From the NCBI GenBank assembly GCA_027036135.1, contig JALVSY010000007.1:36880-100879 (forward strand): 64,000 nucleotides of DNA, given 5' to 3'. The position numbers and the translations under genes are program-made. Shown here in pieces: positions 1-14,904 of this stretch; position 1 is the stretch's first letter, and each line of letters opens with the position of its first letter. This DNA is from Pyrodictiaceae archaeon (lineage in GTDB: Archaea > Thermoproteota > Thermoprotei_A > Sulfolobales > Pyrodictiaceae). A model generated the notes under the pieces. That model ran no database searches. It had not been told where the DNA came from and worked only from the letters and a program-made list of their open reading frames with translations.

Positions 1-614
1 GCCCATAGGCTCCTTGCGCTGCTCAAAGCTTCTCGAAGCAACGTGGAGCGCCGGGTCTTCTCCACAGGCTTCTCTAGGAAGAGGAGAGCTGAGAGAAGCG
101 CTGCCAAGCCGCCATTAGCAGAGCCGTAGAGAAACCCTGCTGCATAGCCATAGTGATCGACCAGCACCCCTGATATGAAGGGGGAAATGCTCGAAGCAAG
201 CGCTATCGCGGCGCTCCTTGCGGAGATAGCGCGGCTAGCAGAGACCCCAGGGATCACGCTTGCAGCAAAGATGCTCGGGGCCACAAAGAACGCTAGCCCC
301 AGGCCCTGCAACGCCCTAGCCAGCGCAACACCTAGGATACTGTGGCTCGCGGCAGCAACGAGCCCGGATACGAGTATCCATACACTACCCAGCACCATGA
401 AGGGGCGTGCACCGACGCGGTCAGCTCCAACACCCACAGGGATGCGCGAAACAGCCGAAGCCAGTGGCGCTAACGAGAAGACAAGCCCAACACTAGCGAC
501 GCTAAGCCCGAGGAACCGCGCATAACGAGCAATAATAGACGTAATAGCAATTAACCCCGAGAAGAACAAGTAGGAGGACCCAACAAGTAACCAGAGACCA
601 CGACTACCACGCAC
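1..614 (-). CDS. MFS transporter (3' end runs off the window)
   Basis: Hand translation of the minus strand from GTG at 614 gives a hydrophobic open frame with MFS motif A-like GVGADRVGARP and ARALQGLG; not in the ORF track because it is truncated. Confidence 0.8.
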   Translation of the reverse strand, partial: MRGSRGLWLLVGSSYLFFSGLIAITSIIARYARFLGLSVASVGLVFSLAPLASAVSRIPVGVGADRVGARPFMVLGSVWILVSGLVAAASHSILGVALARALQGLGLAFFVAPSIFAASVIPGVSASRAISARSAAIALASSISPFISGVLVDHYGYAAGFLYGSANGGLAALLSALLFLEKPVEKTRRSTLLREALSSARSLW

Positions 615-807: not shown

Positions 808-1119
808 ATGAGAAGGTGTTGTAAGAGTAGGAAAGAGGGCAAGATCGTCTTGCAAAAACAGTCGCTTGGAGACATAATCAAGGATATTAAGAGAGAATTA
901 GCAGCTATGACGCCGCTTATGGAGACACTAATAGACTTGATGATGATCTCTGAGGTCTGGGAGGAAAACGGTTACATTCATGTTATTGCGTGGGTACCGG
1001 ACCTAGTAGAGGGCAAGCCAAGGTATCGTAGAAAGCACATAGTCTATGATGTTGCTGGCAAGCGTATAGTAAGGGTGATAGAGGCTGAAAAGGAGGAAAC
1101 AGTACAAAAGGCGGTTTAG
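808..1119 (+). CDS. hypothetical protein, positional antitoxin candidate
   Basis: 103-aa ORF directly upstream of a decayed PIN gene. Confidence 0.5.
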   Translation: MRRCCKSRKEGKIVLQKQSLGDIIKDIKRELAAMTPLMETLIDLMMISEVWEENGYIHVIAWVPDLVEGKPRYRRKHIVYDVAGKRIVRVIEAEKEETVQKAV

Positions 1120-1120
1120 G

Positions 1121-1575
1121 GGAGCACTAGTTCTCGATACTGGTCCATTACTAGGCCTTTTATCCCTACATACAGCCCTTAGGCTGTGCTCTTGACGAGC
1201 TAGGTGCCTTAGTAGAGAAACTATATGACAAACTGCTCGGCTTTAGCCTTGTCTCCTCATGGCCTGTATTTACAGAGGCTCTCCACATTCTCGAGAATAG
1301 GTGCCGTCTCGAAGCGAAGAGACTACGTGGAGAAGCTTAGCGCGATAAAAGCTCTCCTAGCAATGGTAAAGGAGGAGACCATAGATCTTCACGAGGCACT
1401 ACGGAGACTAGCGCCAGGCGTTGATTTAGCCGATGCAGCACTCATCGGTTTACTAGAAAGGAGCCAAGGGCTATACACGCTACTAACCCACGACTATTCC
1501 CTAGCTAGGCTTGCTCGTCACCAAGGCCTACAAGCATTAACTACTTGGGAGCTACTAAGCCTCCTAGGCGGCTAA
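1121..1575 (+). pseudogene. PIN-domain (VapC-like) toxin pseudogene
   Basis: PIN motifs in three frames: LVLDTGPL (1121), SSWPVFTEALHIL (middle), DLADAALI...LLTHD (ORF 1225-1575); two frameshifts. Confidence 0.65.
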
Positions 1576-9688: not shown

Positions 9689-10183
9689 GTGTTGGAGGTT
9701 GCAGCCGAGAGAGTGGCTGAGAAGAGCGAGCTAGAGGAGGTACTTGGCCCGGTAGAGCCTCCGAAGCCCCTGGAATGGGTCCCTGTAATAGCTAGCCTGG
9801 GTATTGAGAGGAAGCGTGTCAGGCTACGTAGTGGCGAGACCCGGGTCTATGAGAGCTACCGGGTGAGGCTACCCAAGGAGGTTGTTGAGAAGCTAGGTCT
9901 CCGAGGAGAATCAACAGTGCTCCTTCAAGTAGCCCGGCCCCGCTGGTACCACCTCCTAGACTACAGGGAAGAGCCCCTCCGCACCAGGTTCAAGCAAATA
10001 AAGAAGCCATGGATAAAGGCAGAGATATGCCTCCTAGGCCTCGCCCCCCAGGATCTATGCAATGACTATAAGACAATCACAGTCATAGCCTCCGAGCAGG
10101 AGCTACGGGAACTAGGACTGGAGCCAGGCAAGCCAATAACGCTCAGAGAACTACTAGAGAGGGCTAGAAGCATGAGAGGCTGA
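9689..10183 (+). CDS. AbrB/SpoVT-like protein with extra C-terminal domain (copy 1)
   Basis: SGETRVYESYRVRLPKEVVEKLGL swapped-hairpin pattern; paralog of 10551-11042. Confidence 0.7.
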   Translation: MLEVAAERVAEKSELEEVLGPVEPPKPLEWVPVIASLGIERKRVRLRSGETRVYESYRVRLPKEVVEKLGLRGESTVLLQVARPRWYHLLDYREEPLRTRFKQIKKPWIKAEICLLGLAPQDLCNDYKTITVIASEQELRELGLEPGKPITLRELLERARSMRG

Positions 10184-10550: not shown

Positions 10551-11042
10551 TTGGTGACAATTGTGGAGACGCTGAGCGTTGAGGAGAGGGAGAGGCTCAT
10601 AGAGGAGCTACGCCGAGAGGCCAGGCCGGAGCCACTGAGGTGGAGGCTCTTCCTAGCGGAGGCTATGAGGACCCGTATGAGGAAGAGGCTGAAGAGCGGC
10701 GAGACCCGGGTCTACGAGGGCTACCGAGTAACCATACCCCTGGAGCTCGCCAAGGAGCTAGGCCTAGACCAGGACCCCGAGCTAGTAGTAGCAATAGCTA
10801 AGCCCAGATGGTACCACGGCATAATCTACGAGGATGCTACCCTCAAGCTCTTCCACAAACTCCCCCCATACGCTAAGGCGGAGATATGCCAACTGGGCCT
10901 CGCTCCCCAAGACATGTGCAGAGAATACAGAACCATAACCGTGGTAGCTAGTGAGGAAGAGCTAAGGAGGCTAGGACTGGAGCCAGGCAAGCCCGTGACA
11001 CTCAGGGAGCTCCTCGAGAAAGCCAAGAACCTCGCAACCTGA
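10551..11042 (+). CDS. AbrB/SpoVT-like protein with extra C-terminal domain (copy 2)
   Basis: SGETRVYEGYRVTIPLELAKELGL...PRWYH...KAEICQLGLAPQDMC...LGLEPGKPVTLRELLE. Confidence 0.75.
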   Translation: MVTIVETLSVEERERLIEELRREARPEPLRWRLFLAEAMRTRMRKRLKSGETRVYEGYRVTIPLELAKELGLDQDPELVVAIAKPRWYHGIIYEDATLKLFHKLPPYAKAEICQLGLAPQDMCREYRTITVVASEEELRRLGLEPGKPVTLRELLEKAKNLAT

Positions 11043-11379
11043 TCCCTCTCCGCAGCAAAGATATGCATTAGCCGAAGTAGTCGAGGAAGCTGCAACGCCT
11101 ACCCATGGCCCCTAGCCAGAGCCTCCGAAGAGCCCATAGCCCTTGGGCGCGTATTTCTCCATGTACCCTACATACCAGCTTATCCGGTTACCGCTGTTCC
11201 CGATACCACCCTTAGTGGCTAGGAGCATGCATGTAGAGCATACCCTCATTGAATCTCCACTGGTATAGAGGTGGGCCTCTTGTATCCCAGGGGTACACAA
11301 GGTAACACTTTCTCCTAGAAACAATGGATGCGATAACACCTAGGCACAGATAACGAGGTACCCTAGAGCCCCATGAATA

Positions 11380-11388
11380 CAAAGAAAT
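11380..11388 (-). terminator. U-rich end of the putative rod RNA
   Basis: Minus strand reads ATTTCTTTG a few nt after the outer stem closes; archaeal intrinsic termination uses oligo-U. Confidence 0.35.
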
Positions 11389-11392
11389 GCGG

Positions 11393-13293
11393 GAGGAGCC
11401 CACCCCTAACCACACAGAGAGACCCAAATCAAGCCCTGGAAGCCCCTCCCCAGGGAACCCCTTCTCTCGGGGAAGGCGGCCGGCCAACCCCGAGGGGCGG
11501 GCCCCCCGGGCCCGGAAAGAGAGCCACGCATCTGGGAACCCTTGTTCTCCCCCAAGCACCCAGAGAGACACGCCCCGGGAAACCAGGCGGCCACAGAGCC
11601 CCCGCCAGGCCAAGGAGCCCGGTTCCCAGCGCCGAAGAAGACACCAGGAGAGCCCCGAGCCCAGGGACACTGCCCAGGCCCCACGGGAAGAGACCCCTAA
11701 AGTAGGAGCCCGCCACAGCGGAGGCCAATGCCAGTCCCTAAGGCCCACCCTCTCCCACGGCACGGAGGGGCAGGCCCAGCAAGCCCTAGGAATCCCCGAG
11801 TCCCCCGGAGCACCCCAAGGAACCAGGGGCTACGGCGAACCAGCGGCCCCTGGGCCTCCCCGCGGCTAGAGCCCCAAGGCACCCTAGAAGGCACCAGGGA
11901 AGCGATGACCATCCCCAGCCGCCTCAGGGATGCGTGCCAACACCACCTCGGGCCCTGGGACATCTAGGCCAGCTGGCACAGCCCCAGCCCACGGGGTGGT
12001 AGCGGAGCAACCTCTCGTCGAAGATGCGCGTCCCATGGCCCCGGCCAAGGACCTCTACCCCAAGGCTTTCGCGGAGCCCTGGCAGCCTCCGCGATACGGC
12101 CTGGGCAGAGCCCCGTAGAGTCTCTCGGTGCCGCCAGAGACCCCCAGGGCCGAGACCTAGCGGCCCTGGAAACCTTGCTCCGTCGAGGAGAACCCCTCCC
12201 AAGCACTGCTGCCAAGAGGCGAACAGCTGTTATAAGCCCCTCATGCGGTTGCCGAAAAAGTCCCCGGCCCGAAGCGGCGCTCCCAAGGACCCGGCCCAGG
12301 AGGTGAATCCTCCCCGGGCACCCTCTAGGGATCCAAGGGGCTCTCCTATACACCGAGGCTCATGCGGCCTCGGCGGAGGCCCTCCGGGGTCCCTAGAGGG
12401 CTTGGTCCCTGAGGCGCCTTGGGCCAGGGGCTTTCGGCAACCGCGTACTAGTGGATTAGCTTCGGGGCCTAGCGCGGGAGGGTTCTCCTCAACGGAGCCG
12501 TGGCACATTGCTATCATATTATTGCCGGGAATCCCTGGTAGCACCGAGAGACTCCACAAGGCCCATGCCCAGGCCTCTAAGGCAGCGGGGGCTGCCGGGC
12601 CCTACTCGCCTTGGGGCAAGAGCCCTTGATCGGAGCCAGGGGCGCTTGTTCCTCGGCGAAGAGGTTGCTCCTCCCCCGGAGCCGGGGCTATGTCAGCCAG
12701 CCTGGTCTCGGGGCTTCGAGGGTGAGCTGACACGCGCCCCCTGAGACGGCGGGGATGGTCCCTGGGTGCCTCCTTGGGGTGCCCTGGAGCACCTAGCCGC
12801 AGAGGGAGACATAGAGGGCCTAGCTAGCCCGCCGTTAAGCCCCTGGTCCCTGGGGTGCTTTCCCGGGGGTCCTCGGAGGAATCCCTGGCTCGCTGGGCCC
12901 CCTTGGTTCCTCCGCGCCGTGGGATGCTGATTGGTGGGCTTGGGCCCGGCTTGGTCTCCATGCCGTGGCGGGTCCCGGTGCCCTCCCCGCGGAGGCCTCT
13001 CTTGGTTCCTGGGTCTCGGGGCTCTCCTGGTGCTCTCGGCGCTGGCTAGGCACTGTGCTCCCTGGCCTAGCAAGGGCCTGTAACCAACCTGGTTTTCCTC
13101 GGAGCGCGTCTCTCTGGGTGCATCACCCCCGTGCGTGGCTCTCTTTGAGGATCCTCAGGGCCCACCCTCCCCGCGGGACTCTTCCTTCCCCGAGAGGGGG
13201 TCCCGGGGCGGGCGGGGTCCAGGGCTCCCTGCTCCCAGGAGGCAGGCTGGCTCCTCCTGGGAGAGGGGCTGTGTGGCTAGGGGTGGGCTCCCC
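11393..13293 (-). ncRNA. candidate ~1.9-kb rod-shaped (fold-back) non-coding RNA
   Basis: Nested imperfect inverted repeats from the outer stem 11393-11417/13269-13293 to an apex near 12362; mismatches mostly G-U on the minus strand; no credible protein ORF. Confidence 0.6.
11393..13293. repeat. giant imperfect inverted repeat (two ~950-bp arms)
   Basis: Examples: 11642 CACCAGGAGAGCCCCGAG vs 13015 CTCGGGGCTCTCCTGGTG; 12118 GAGTCTCTCGGTGC vs 12541 GCACCGAGAGACTC; 12245 GCGGTTGCCGAAA vs 12432 TTTCGGCAACCGC. Confidence 0.95.
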
Positions 13294-13324
13294 TTTAGGC
13301 CTCCTTTCTACTGTTTTGATAGTG

Positions 13325-13331
13325 CTTTAAG
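13325..13331 (-). promoter_or_regulatory. TATA-like box for the putative rod RNA
   Basis: Minus-strand CTTAAAG in the only AT-rich patch, about 30 nt upstream of the outer stem. Confidence 0.4.
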
Positions 13332-13506
13332 AGTTAGGGGGTATGAGGAGTGCTGGGTTCTCTCGCGGTTTCTTGGTGCGCGACGTGCCCGGTGGTGTAG
13401 GGGTGGTGCGGGGAGAAGGAGTGCTATGTACGGAGGGGCTTCGGGGCGCGGTGTTGCTTCCTGGTTCGAGGGGAGCATTGTTTCCCTGTCTTGGCTCCCC
13501 GTGGGG

Positions 13507-13896
13507 CTAGGTGAGGGCTTTTCCTGTCTCCTGCCTCATGTGCGGGGGTGCTCCGTCGTGGCCGTCTAGGTGTCTGCGTAGATAATCTGCTACCTCTTTT
13601 ACCTCGTCTAGGCTCACTGTGAAGAAGTACTTGTTCTCGATGTAGAGCGTGGCGGCCTCGCGAGTAGTGTCTACTAGTTGGTCTAGGCACTCGTCGCTCT
13701 CTAGGCACTCCTTTATAGCTTCCAGGCCTAGCTCGGAGGCCACGAAGCTATAGGTCTCCATCACTGCTAGCTCCATGCCCACGAGTGCTAGGAGTTCCTC
13801 CCCCAGCTCCTCTTCCTCGACGCAGAGGTCCCCAGCCTCCCTGCACACTAGGCTCGCTACTAGCCTCGGCGAGTACCTACCCAGTGGCTCCACCAT
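13507..13896 (-). CDS. acidic hypothetical protein, possibly the C-terminal remnant of a longer gene
   Basis: 129-aa ORF with host-like codon style; the same frame continues upstream past a TAA at about 13903. Confidence 0.55.
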   Translation of the reverse strand: MVEPLGRYSPRLVASLVCREAGDLCVEEEELGEELLALVGMELAVMETYSFVASELGLEAIKECLESDECLDQLVDTTREAATLYIENKYFFTVSLDEVKEVADYLRRHLDGHDGAPPHMRQETGKALT

Positions 13897-14220: not shown

Positions 14221-14664
14221 CTAGCGTATGAGTAGGTTGCTTGTGTCTAGGCCCTTTGTCTCTAGGAACTCTACTAGTTTCCTATCGCGTGTGACTAGGA
14301 TCGCGTCTTCGTGGAGGGCTGTAGCGTAGAGTATACAGTCAAAGATATCGGGGTGCCCAAGTGCCTTCAGCTTAATCGCGGTCTTGATGTGCTCTATACG
14401 GGGCTGTATAAGCCCCACATCAACTTCTAGGAGTAATGCGATCAAGGCCTCGGACGCGGGCTCGGGTACCTCGCGGAGCCCTTGCTTCATCATCTCCTTT
14501 GCTATCTTTGCTGCGAGTTCGGGTAGGAGCAGGATAGGGTAATAGATATCTGCGCCTAGCTCTTCTCTTAGCCTGGCTACGTCCCTGGCTTCTAGTCCTT
14601 GTACCTTTATACCGAAGAATGGTAAAAGATAAGTGGTATCGATAACGGCCTTTCTTCTCTGCAA
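14221..14664 (-). CDS. vapC: VapC/PIN toxin
   Basis: VIDTTYLLP...HPDIFDCILYATA...LVTRD. Confidence 0.85.
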   Translation of the reverse strand: MQRRKAVIDTTYLLPFFGIKVQGLEARDVARLREELGADIYYPILLLPELAAKIAKEMMKQGLREVPEPASEALIALLLEVDVGLIQPRIEHIKTAIKLKALGHPDIFDCILYATALHEDAILVTRDRKLVEFLETKGLDTSNLLIR

Positions 14665-14667
14665 GGC

Positions 14668-14904
14668 CTACTGGTCCTCCTCGCTTATCCTGGTAAGTTC
14701 CTCGCTCTCCTCCTCGAACTCCTCCACGGTTGTCTCAGCCCAGTAGCTCCTCTCCTTGAATAGGCGGGGGAGGGGGCGAAGCACTAGCTCGTTTCCACGG
14801 ATGCTAAGTAATAGTCTGTCGCCTTCGCGTAGCCCTAATTTCTCAACAATCTCCTTTGGGAGATAAAGCGCATATTTCCGGCCAACCCGGATAACCAGGC
14901 TCAA
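14668..14904 (-). CDS. vapB: AbrB/MazE-type antitoxin
   Basis: RVGRKYALYLPKEIVEKLGLREGD; upstream of PIN gene. Confidence 0.85.
   Translation of the reverse strand: MSLVIRVGRKYALYLPKEIVEKLGLREGDRLLLSIRGNELVLRPLPRLFKERSYWAETTVEEFEEESEELTRISEEDQ

Follow-up and report, generated by a model that had tools for sequence, protein, structure and literature searches.

A chromosomal kilobase palindrome in Pyrodictiaceae as a candidate gene for a thermostable hairpin RNA

Positions 11393-13293 of the window, by which we mean the whole 64,000-nt stretch of Pyrodictiaceae DNA analysed here, form an imperfect palindrome of 1901 nt. This single-copy chromosomal element folds into one long rod, encodes no conserved protein, and belongs to a family whose members share a covarying basal module and a common strand polarity. 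We consider it probable that the element specifies an independently transcribed, non-coding and thermostable hairpin RNA of a new family, with transcription, promoter and terminator inferred from the rods and their flanking sequences. According to this model, the gene would be read from the minus strand of the window under the control of its own TATA-type promoter (box at 13325-13341), with transcription starting some 10 nt ahead of the rod base and ending in a T-rich tract just beyond 11393. The RNA would then adopt a single, almost fully paired GC-rich rod that remains folded near 100 °C. Its conserved functional part would be the basal module of ~55 bp, composed of three covarying helices with two internal loops between them, and the distal rod would form a double-stranded stalk (0.6-1.9 kb in total) that evolves fast and retains pairing alone.

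The rod: fold, stability and strand polarity

The palindrome is set apart from its surroundings by base composition, with a GC content of 0.68 as a whole and 0.66-0.71 within the segment, compared to 0.51-0.59 in the flanks and 0.497 for the genome overall. Rod GC (0.67-0.68) equals that of the rRNA operon in the same genome and is close to that of its SRP RNA (0.64). A sequence-only reading had described the segment as folding back on itself in nested order, and each of the arm pairs that it listed was recovered by repeat search and direct reading. The repeat search placed the outer arms at 11395-11417/13269-13291 (96%), 11432-11466/13192-13226 and 11464-11476/13184-13196 (100%), followed inwards by 11495-11530/13132-13167, 11642-11667/13007-13032 and 11753-11768/12909-12924, and finally by 12110-12145/12527-12562, 12177-12195/12480-12498 and the hairpin that closes the apex (Table 1). 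Global alignment of the left arm with the reverse complement of the right arm gave 704 matches, 109 mismatches and 275 gap columns. A search for tandem repeats gave only one weak example (score 33).

Folding of both strands at 37 °C favoured the minus strand, whose minimum free energy of -1439.9 kcal/mol (780 pairs, 81 of them G-U) compares with -1293.2 kcal/mol for the plus strand (732 pairs, 36 G-U). The minus-strand fold is a rod because 703 of its 780 pairs enclose the apex, and it lies far below the energies of dinucleotide-shuffled sequences (n = 8, mean -1012.6, s.d. 15.5; z = -27.6). At 100 °C the sense strand of the window rod folds at -222.7 versus -170.4 for the antisense strand, and the paired fraction of its nucleotides passes from ~82% at 37 °C to 71%.

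The two strands also differ in the wobble pairs available to them. Transition differences between the arms of the window rod yield G-U pairs on the minus strand in 58 cases (symmetric recount; 59 in a first count) versus 17 on the plus strand, and the minus-strand bias noticed earlier is thus formally significant (binomial p = 1.4e-6). With rod orientation set by the asymmetric module and the TTAAA box, independently of the G-U counts, sense versus antisense G-U mismatches in five rods were 58/17, 54/11, 43/6, 17/11 and 23/5 (195/50 in total), one of them, L004, showing no significant bias by itself (17 vs 11, p = 0.34). The sense strand gives the better fold at 100 °C in all five. Runs of at least four T number one on the sense strands and six on the antisense strands of the five rods. 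The single sense-strand run lies in the middle of the window rod, where transcription may pause or terminate internally; it could stop archaeal RNA polymerase, which counts against the hairpin RNA reading. Eighteen population substitutions (runs X4 and X5; two other samples) favour neither strand, with 6 pairs kept, 6 broken and 6 positions unpaired on the minus fold, and 5, 4 and 9 respectively on the plus fold.

Strand bias had originally been taken to indicate selection for pairing in a minus-strand molecule. The bias stands, with the same sign in every rod; the step to selection is not airtight, because transcription-associated deamination of the non-template strand would produce a bias of the same sign, and the G-U excess could have arisen in this way instead. 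Such deamination also implies transcription in the minus sense. Comparison with relatives brought two features that were out of reach of the original description: on the minus-strand side, a TATA-like box that is conserved, and agreement in G-U polarity among five out of five rods.

Table 1. Coordinates of the rod element and associated features in the window
Feature	Position	Strand	Remarks
Rod	11393..13293	minus	1901 nt; inferred RNA sense, with its 5' base at 13293 and its 3' base at 11393
Rod apex	12346..12375	minus	Closed by hairpin 12321-12346/12375-12400
Module, 5'-arm half	13129..13194	minus	Alignments A1 and A6; duplex view; palindrome list
Module, 3'-arm half	11465..11530	minus	Alignments A2 and A5
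Upstream box CCCCCTAACTCTTAAAG	13325..13341	minus	TATA-like TTAAA, 37 nt before rod base; putative archaeal promoter
T-rich tract, ...CATTTCTTTG...	11376..11392	minus	Directly 3' of rod; putative oligo-T terminator
T5 run	12255..12259	minus	Sole sense-strand T-run of at least 4 in five rods
129-aa ORF	13507..13896	minus	Neighbour gene, outside the RNA

A family of rods with a conserved basal module

Rods with the same module are present in G004 (1019 nt), G023 (665 nt), G018 (626 nt) and the metagenome contig L016 (~1562 nt), and a contig end in G002 carries the putative promoter box followed by the initial 19 nt of a rod. G004, G018 and G023 contain one locus each. The source genome, which is 99.6% complete and carries the rod on a contig of more than 1.1 Mb, likewise has one locus, identified by whole-genome inverted-repeat BLAST as its sole contiguous giant palindrome. 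Together, these sequences point to a new family of non-coding RNAs, with shorter members in related species.

All complete members have in common the ~55-bp basal module with its two conserved asymmetric internal loops. The 5'-arm half, to which detectable interspecies homology on that arm is limited (13129-13194), holds CCCGCGGG (13170-13177) and GAGGATCCTC (13147-13156); the 3'-arm half holds CCGGGCCCGG (11506-11515) and GGCCGGCC (11478-11485), with 36 invariant columns across five sequences. CCCGCGGG or CCGCGCGG lies opposite GGCCGGCC in one loop, and GAGGAUCCUC opposite CCGGGCCCGG in the other. These loop strands are conserved yet not complementary to one another, each being a self-complementary 8-10-mer, and the non-complementary arrangement persists across two genera. 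The ~110-nt conserved module of each member contains four perfect palindromes of 8-12 nt. Palindromes are not enriched over entire rods (9 versus 11.2 in shuffles for the window rod, 9 versus 9.7 for L016) and stand out only by their clustering in the module. Inspection of the duplex by eye found no kink-turn of the L7Ae type (3-nt bulge, tandem sheared G.A/A.G), and tandem G.A/A.G pairs are impossible in both conserved loops because their 3' strands hold no A.

Homologues of the rod do carry compensatory changes, in agreement with the pairing originally proposed. Comparison of G023 with G018 gave 213 consensus pairs, 18 of which have changed on both sides. For the basal module, tested on five related sequences with a structure taken from their own folds, 89.2% of the 51 pairs are paired, compared to 39.6-58.3% with slid partners; 19 of the 51 have changed on both sides, versus 3-9 in the slid controls, and the covariation score was reached by none of 500 shuffles. 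Conserved secondary structure with compensatory changes, the generic hallmark of a structured non-coding RNA, is thus seen in these five related sequences. The distal rods have no detectable homology between species, yet every one of them remains paired, and under the hairpin RNA reading pairing alone would be maintained there.

The element occurs in five of 29 Pyrodictiaceae species and was not found in five near-complete genomes of other genera (G006, G009, G012, G015 and G019), so that the family does not depend on it. When 185,579 species genomes were scanned for the 3'-module pattern, the motif turned up in Pyrodictiaceae records only, and a sequence-only model of the 3' module (R1) gave four strong matches over the 29 family genomes. 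Allowing three mismatches across 325 genomes of the order added only two matches, G026 and G116, which are chance matches and not rods. Two of three metagenome matches (L017 and L018) are chance similarities in GC-rich DNA, and nine marginal-match loci among L039-L049 contain no rod, with self-complement scores of 26-50 against 260-318 for true rods. A further contig of high GC content (C26, 0.68) was considered and dropped.

The rod had been described as non-coding and as unlike any described archaeal RNA family in size and shape, and both descriptions held. When the five rods' 101 stop-to-stop ORFs (40 aa or longer) were compared all-against-all by BLASTP, no frame-specific conservation emerged; the matches are short, lie at the conserved core, and fall in several frames and on both strands. 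Most indels between G023 and G018 are not multiples of three (alignment A3). Rfam 15 at gathering threshold gave no match in the whole 64-kb window, which also contains no rRNA or tRNA. Relaxing the search to E <= 1 over 11000-13700 returned three sub-threshold chance matches (two miRNA models, and mraW, whose 26 bits fall short of its threshold of 50) and no self-cleaving ribozyme family. No 3-4-3 bulge-helix-bulge, the mark of an rRNA-type processing stem, was present in the minimum-free-energy structures of the five rods.

Flanking signals, rival explanations and possible function

Among sequencing runs searched for the palindrome, DNA runs contain it and no RNA run does. The flanks of the rod suggest how it might be transcribed. 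The CTTAAA box aligns in the window, L003, L004 and L005 (alignment A1) and is near-identical in L016 and G002, with 34-37 nt between TTAAA and the rod base (window, L003 and L004). It is conserved on one side of the rod only and is a putative promoter. The SRP RNA gene of the same genome is preceded by a similar CCCCT[T/A]AC..CTTAAG; the pattern CCCCT[AT]AC..TTAA[AG] occurs at seven sites genome-wide, two of which precede the rod and SRP RNA and none a tRNA, so that the shared motif constitutes weak evidence. T-rich tracts also lie 3' of the rod in L016, L003 and L004, and termination may take place there.

Neither Pfam nor NCBIfam assigns the neighbouring 129-aa ORF to a family, and Atlas gives no match for it. 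Its homologues adjoin the rod within the genus of the window only; it is missing beside the rods of genus g11, and no obligatory partner gene was found. In g11, the MBL-fold neighbour gene is present in four of five other genomes, where synteny is lost and no rod lies nearby. The orientation of rod and box relative to the neighbour gene is inverted in G004 compared to the window, L016 and G002, a flip that fits a self-contained transcription unit.

It is also conceivable, though in our view unlikely, that the palindrome acts at the level of DNA, for instance by extruding a cruciform or binding proteins in replication, recombination or segregation, with 8-10-bp operators for dimeric proteins, gene conversion between the arms, and a G-T excess caused by deamination. 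Such a locus would explain the clustering of perfect palindromes in the module, against nine per entire rod in the window and L016 where some 10-11 are expected, and arm conversion would explain how distal homology is lost between species with self-complementarity kept. The lack of strand preference among the population variants and the AbrB-type DNA-binding genes near the rod in the window are also in its favour. Frequent conversion should, however, wipe out the non-complementary loops, which are kept across two genera, and the roughly 4:1 G-U polarity tracks the orientation of the module in five of five rods. A GC content at the level of rRNA is of no obvious use to a DNA site, the TTAAA box is one-sided, and T-runs are avoided on one strand. 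Moreover, reverse gyrase in hyperthermophiles introduces positive supercoiling, which disfavours cruciform extrusion.

The remaining alternatives are far less credible. A relic of a mobile or viral replicon, be it a fold-back transposon or the point at which a hairpin-ended linear virus or plasmid had its long inverted terminal repeats joined head to head, would suit the patchy distribution, the different genomic neighbourhoods of the rod in the two genera, and the toxin-antitoxin genes near the window rod. We nonetheless judge it highly improbable: fold-back transposons and MITEs occur in multiple copies per genome and the rod in one, as the sole contiguous giant palindrome. Its arms are imperfect and contain conserved asymmetric loops, no viral or transposase-like ORF was seen in the flanks examined at the rod loci, blastn against phage and plasmid records gave no match, and both module motifs were absent from IMG/VR. 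We give even less credence to the idea that the chromosome carries a DNA copy of a rod-shaped RNA replicon resembling viroids, HDV or Obelisks, an idea suggested by the rod shape, the kilobase size and one account of rod-like Obelisk-type RNAs in hot springs (PMC13096302). The element is DNA-encoded in the assemblies of at least three studies, shares its position beside the 129-aa gene inside a genus, has a promoter-like box and linear defined ends, and matches no self-cleaving ribozyme or other Rfam family meaningfully at E <= 1, nor does it contain a conserved Oblin-like ORF. Least credible, and largely refuted, is the view that an old gene was duplicated in inverted form and is decaying neutrally, or that the palindrome is an artefact of assembly. 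Long P/G/R-rich ORFs in all frames might hint at the former, and palindromes are a classic product of faulty assembly and amplification. With 13% divergence plus gaps between them, the arms are no chimeric perfect repeat; compensatory changes accompany the conservation of module and structure across genera, and no ORF is conserved. A 3060-nt contig from another study covers the element from end to end, differing by 21 substitutions and 3 indels, and a contig from a third study reads through the apex with 100% identity. Because these independent assemblies span the palindrome, it is not a mis-assembly.

For the hairpin RNA that we favour, a role can be sketched in speculative terms. The module may serve as a protein docking site, or as a site at which rods pair with one another via their self-complementary loop strands; we would not rank this idea above a working guess. 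With docking or rod-rod pairing, the RNA could provide a stable double-stranded scaffold or serve as a decoy. Read as DNA, each of the four conserved loop strands is a perfect palindrome, as the sites of dimeric DNA-binding proteins also look, and this counts against the RNA reading. A more ambitious version, which we consider less likely than not, envisages a new class of cellular RNA: a chromosomal kilobase hairpin of archaea living near 100 °C, whose loops pair rods or dock a dimeric protein to make a heat-proof scaffold or decoy, and whose stalk is renewed by apex-centred palindromic DNA duplication and then selected for pairing.

Comparison with known systems

If the transcript exists, it would rank among the largest archaeal orphan non-coding RNAs and be the most fully paired of them, and would provide a test case for the making and keeping of RNA structure at about 100 °C. 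It would also raise the questions of how a cell transcribes a 900-bp hairpin and avoids losing it from its DNA by deletion, and of the fate of dsRNA in a cell without RNase III and Dicer. The conserved module offers a handle for pull-downs and for searches of vent metatranscriptomes.

Eukaryotic RNA interference and rod-shaped RNA replicons provide the known cases of long perfect dsRNA made on purpose by cells; searches of Rfam 15 and of the literature found no report of its production from an archaeal or bacterial chromosomal gene. The resemblance to viroids, HDV and Obelisks noted in the sequence-only reading holds for shape, in that a kilobase RNA is predicted as one unbranched, highly paired rod, and goes no further. 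Those agents are RNA replicons without a chromosomal gene, many have ribozymes, and Obelisks and HDV encode a protein, whereas the rod element has a single chromosomal copy, a promoter-like box, much higher pairing (82%), and neither a ribozyme match nor a conserved ORF. Eukaryotic hpRNA loci are genomic inverted repeats that give rise to long, near-perfect hairpin RNAs feeding RNA interference. The rod element is likewise an inverted repeat that would yield a long hairpin, but its basal module is conserved, the rest of the genome offers no detectable target for it, and we know of no Dicer pathway in archaea of this group.

Archaeal SRP (7S) RNA is also GC-rich (0.64, C16), rod-like and stable, with a similar CCCCT[T/A]AC..CTTAA[G/A] upstream. 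SRP RNA is nevertheless ~310 nt long and universal, and Rfam recognises it at its own locus, whereas the rod is 2-6 times longer, restricted to few species and without an Rfam match. The bacterial regulator 6S RNA, a hairpin of ~180 nt, has a bubble that mimics an open sigma-70 promoter, and resembles the rod in its hairpin form and in a conserved internal bubble between helices that keep pairing and not sequence. The loops of the rod, in contrast, are partly paired 10 x 10-nt elements with no counterpart in Rfam, and a decoy role by analogy with 6S RNA is pure conjecture. GOLLD, ROOL, OLE and HEARO are, like the rod, orphan non-coding RNAs of at least 0.5 kb that emerged from comparative genomics, and some of them reportedly self-assemble via self-complementary loops. 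They are bacterial or phage-borne, intricately branched and represented in Rfam, whereas the rod is unbranched, archaeal and outside Rfam.

Fold, composition and assembly of the rod

When the left arm of the palindrome is globally aligned to the reverse-complemented right arm, 704 columns match, 109 mismatch and 275 contain gaps. The nested arm pairs reported in a sequence-only reading were all recovered by repeat search and direct reading of the sequence. MFE folding predicts a single rod for either strand. On the minus strand it comprises 780 pairs, 703 of them enclosing an apex near 12360, at -1439.9 kcal/mol versus a mean of -1012.6 (sd 15.5) for eight dinucleotide shuffles (z = -27.6). 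Transition mismatches between the arms yield 59 G-U pairs on the minus strand versus 17 on the plus strand (58 versus 17 on a symmetric recount, p ~1e-6); the earlier estimate of a roughly 3:1 minus-strand bias was therefore right. The predicted folds contain 81 and 36 G-U pairs respectively, and the minus-strand fold has a stability advantage of 147 kcal/mol at 37 C, which shrinks to 52 kcal/mol at 100 C.

GC content is 0.66-0.71 within the segment versus 0.497 genome-wide, and the clearly structural GC-rich islands of the source genome (G000) are the rRNA operon (0.67-0.69), the SRP RNA (0.64) and the rod (0.67). Another contig of this 0.50-GC genome, C26 (L031, 5633 nt), has a GC of 0.66-0.69 throughout. 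It has no Rfam match, no large repeats and only three ORFs of at least 200 aa, none of the three with a Pfam family, and may be foreign or mis-binned, or unannotated GC-rich DNA.

The rod is single-copy in this 2.2-Mb, 99.6%-complete genome, where it lies on a contig of over 1.1 Mb (C7) and is the sole contiguous giant palindrome by whole-genome inverted-repeat BLAST. Two other studies yielded contigs from this locus. One of 3060 nt (run X4) covers the entire rod stretch and differs from it by 21 substitutions and 3 indels; the other (X3) runs through the apex with 100% identity. The arms diverge by ~13% plus gaps, which is not expected of a chimera and rules against a chimeric-duplication artefact.

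Features of the rod, its surroundings and related loci
Feature	Position	Strand	Description
Imperfect palindrome, 1901 nt	window 11393-13293	minus (inferred RNA sense)	arm alignment and folding
TTAAA box	window 13325-13341	minus	CCCCTAACTCTTAAA; putative promoter
Basal module	~45-110 nt from rod base		helix H1, IL1, H2, IL2, H3 in order
Internal loop IL1			5' strand CCGCGCGG, CCCGCGGG or CCCCGCGGGG versus 3' strand GGCCGGCC
Helix H2			12-14 bp
Internal loop IL2			GAGGAUCCUC across from CCGGGCCCGG
T-rich tract	directly past far end of rod		putative terminator
129-aa ORF	window 13507-13896	minus	no known family
Paralogue of 129-aa ORF	G000:C7:32956-33270		
~164-aa ORF	window 9689-10183	plus	AbrB/MazE-type domain
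~164-aa ORF	window 10551-11042	plus	AbrB/MazE-type domain
VapBC-type pair	window 14221-14904	minus	toxin-antitoxin
PIN-domain protein	window 14221-14664	minus	
MazE/AbrB-type antitoxin	window 14668-14904	minus	
Motif before SRP RNA gene	C16:239066-239082; L034 ~367-383		CCCCTTACACACTTAAG
Apical regions, shorter rods	L004 1185-1300; L005 1185-1300; L003 ~980-1130		A-rich, AT-rich

Related rods and their shared anatomy

Weak BLAST matches in relatives all lay within GC-rich nested palindromes. The element was seen in two genera, in 5 of the family's 29 species genomes; many of the genomes without it are incomplete MAGs, and contigs break at palindromes, as G018 and G002 show. The latter (same genus as the window, 68% complete) contains, at one contig end, the conserved box plus the initial 19 nt of a rod, identical to those of the window. 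Five near-complete genomes of other genera showed no rod, a motif search allowing 3 mismatches revealed none in another 296 genomes of the order, and the exact motif was not seen among 185,579 species genomes outside the family members. The distribution is narrow and patchy.

Lengths of the rods and G-U mismatches on each strand
Rod	Length (nt)	Sense G-U	Antisense G-U	Remark
Window (G000)	1901	58	17	
L016	~1562	54	11	found by motif scan of metagenome contigs
G004 (L003)	1019	43	6	same genus as window; complete genome
G023 (L004)	665	17	11	second genus (g11); not significant alone
G018 (L005)	626	23	5	second genus (g11); runs to contig end
All five		195	50	

The TTAAA box stands on one side of the rod only, upstream. 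Its distance from the base is 34-37 nt in the window, G004 and G023, and its sequence is near-identical among the window, L016 and G002. The motif preceding the SRP RNA gene of G000 resembles it, and a relaxed form of the two occurs 7 times in that genome. T-runs of at least four are nearly missing from the sense strand (1 versus 6 antisense in the five rods); the window's sense strand carries a T5 run mid-rod. Arm composition is strongly skewed in all five: the 5' arm contains 0.20-0.27 A but 0.07-0.13 U, the 3' arm 0.22-0.25 U but 0.07-0.15 A. Consequently, A-U pairs almost always place A in the 5' arm and U in the 3' arm (117 versus 44 in the window), a polarity conserved despite turnover of the distal sequence. 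The apical region of the g11 rods encloses a small, perfectly conserved hairpin, GGAGCC..CUCGGGGGAG..GGCUCC; the window apex has no AT-rich region of the shorter-rod kind.

In the window's genus the 129-aa ORF adjoins the rod. It lies upstream and codirectional in the window, L016 and G002, and downstream and convergent in G004; that the orientation flips inside a single genus is consistent with box and rod forming a self-contained unit. The ORF belongs to a small family of orphan proteins, 129-145 aa long, in which VCREAGDLC and ECL..DECL motifs are conserved; three G004 loci are among its paralogues, and it matches nothing in Pfam, NCBIfam or Atlas. The g11 rods are flanked by a PLP-dependent TrpB-like gene on one side and a metallo-beta-lactamase-fold gene on the other, and no partner gene is common to both genera. 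Just left of the window rod, the two paralogous ~164-aa ORFs each have the AbrB/MazE-type domain (Pfam PF04014, E = 2.8e-7 and 1.8e-3), followed by a C-terminal part common to both.

Strand polarity, covariation and turnover

With orientation set from the asymmetric module and the box, independently of G-U counts, all five rods have their G-U excess on one and the same strand, the sense strand, which is also the stabler at 100 C in every case. Population substitutions in other samples are neutral between the two strands.

The G023 and G018 rods, 81% identical over 622 nt, have 213 consensus pairs in common, 18 of them changed on both sides. Across the module we compared 51 pairs with controls whose partners were slid by 1-3 columns, in a sample of five related sequences from whose own folds the tested structure was derived: 89.2% of cells were paired (39.6-58.3% when slid), 19 pairs had changed on both sides (3-9), and the covariation score was 0.416 (0.096-0.188), matched by none of 500 shuffles. 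The central 27-pair stretch, from H2 through IL2 to H3, was 99.2% paired, and the sequence of H3 is wholly different between genera.

Between species, homology is detectable only in the module region of each arm, outside which the window and L016 align near noise. Away from its basal and apical ends every rod nonetheless remains paired at 0.74-0.97 in the intervening bins, which means that pairing is actively upheld even as the rods change in sequence and length. One possible route is selection acting through compensatory changes on the fold of a single-stranded molecule; another is renewal of the palindrome at the DNA level, either by apex-centred duplication or by conversion between the arms, with later decay. 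Conservation of the non-complementary loops is an argument that selection keeps any such conversion in check.

A probable hairpin RNA and its alternatives

The rod does not resemble a coding sequence or a catalogued RNA. ORFs of the five rods show no frame-specific conservation, and by reading, G023/G018 indels are mostly not multiples of three. Rfam 15 gave no match at gathering thresholds and, at E <= 1, only three chance-level sub-threshold matches, none a ribozyme. No bulge-helix-bulge motif was found in the rod folds, phage and plasmid records held no match to the rod, and IMG/VR held none for either module motif.

The simplest account, and probably the correct one, is that the window minus strand encodes an extremely stable, non-coding hairpin RNA, whose transcription we infer. 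This reading follows from the rRNA-like GC, the one-sided TTAAA box, the far-end T-tract, the avoidance of T-runs, the fourfold G-U polarity tied to module orientation, the covarying helices and the conserved asymmetric loops. Deamination of the non-template strand would be an alternative source of G-U pairs, and the excess alone could reflect it rather than selection; such an origin would still imply transcription in the minus-strand sense, and cannot account for the double compensatory changes. Against an RNA stand the mid-rod T5, the one member without significant bias, the strand-neutral polymorphism, the patchy range and the small sample.

The main rival, which we consider unlikely, treats the rod as a DNA-level element with conserved 8-10-bp palindromes to which dimeric proteins bind. 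Its best argument is that four perfect palindromes crowd into the ~110-nt module, where by our estimate from the rod-wide density ~0.6 would be expected. The ~164-aa AbrB/MazE-type proteins could be DNA-binding and relevant to this rival. If the product is instead a hairpin RNA, the palindromes might, as a conjecture, serve rod-rod pairing via self-complementary loop strands or binding of a dimeric RNA-binding protein.

The portion of the literature covered by our search contained no description of such an RNA. Nearest in shape are the Obelisk-type rods of hot springs, which are protein-coding RNA replicons assigned to bacteria (PMC13096302).
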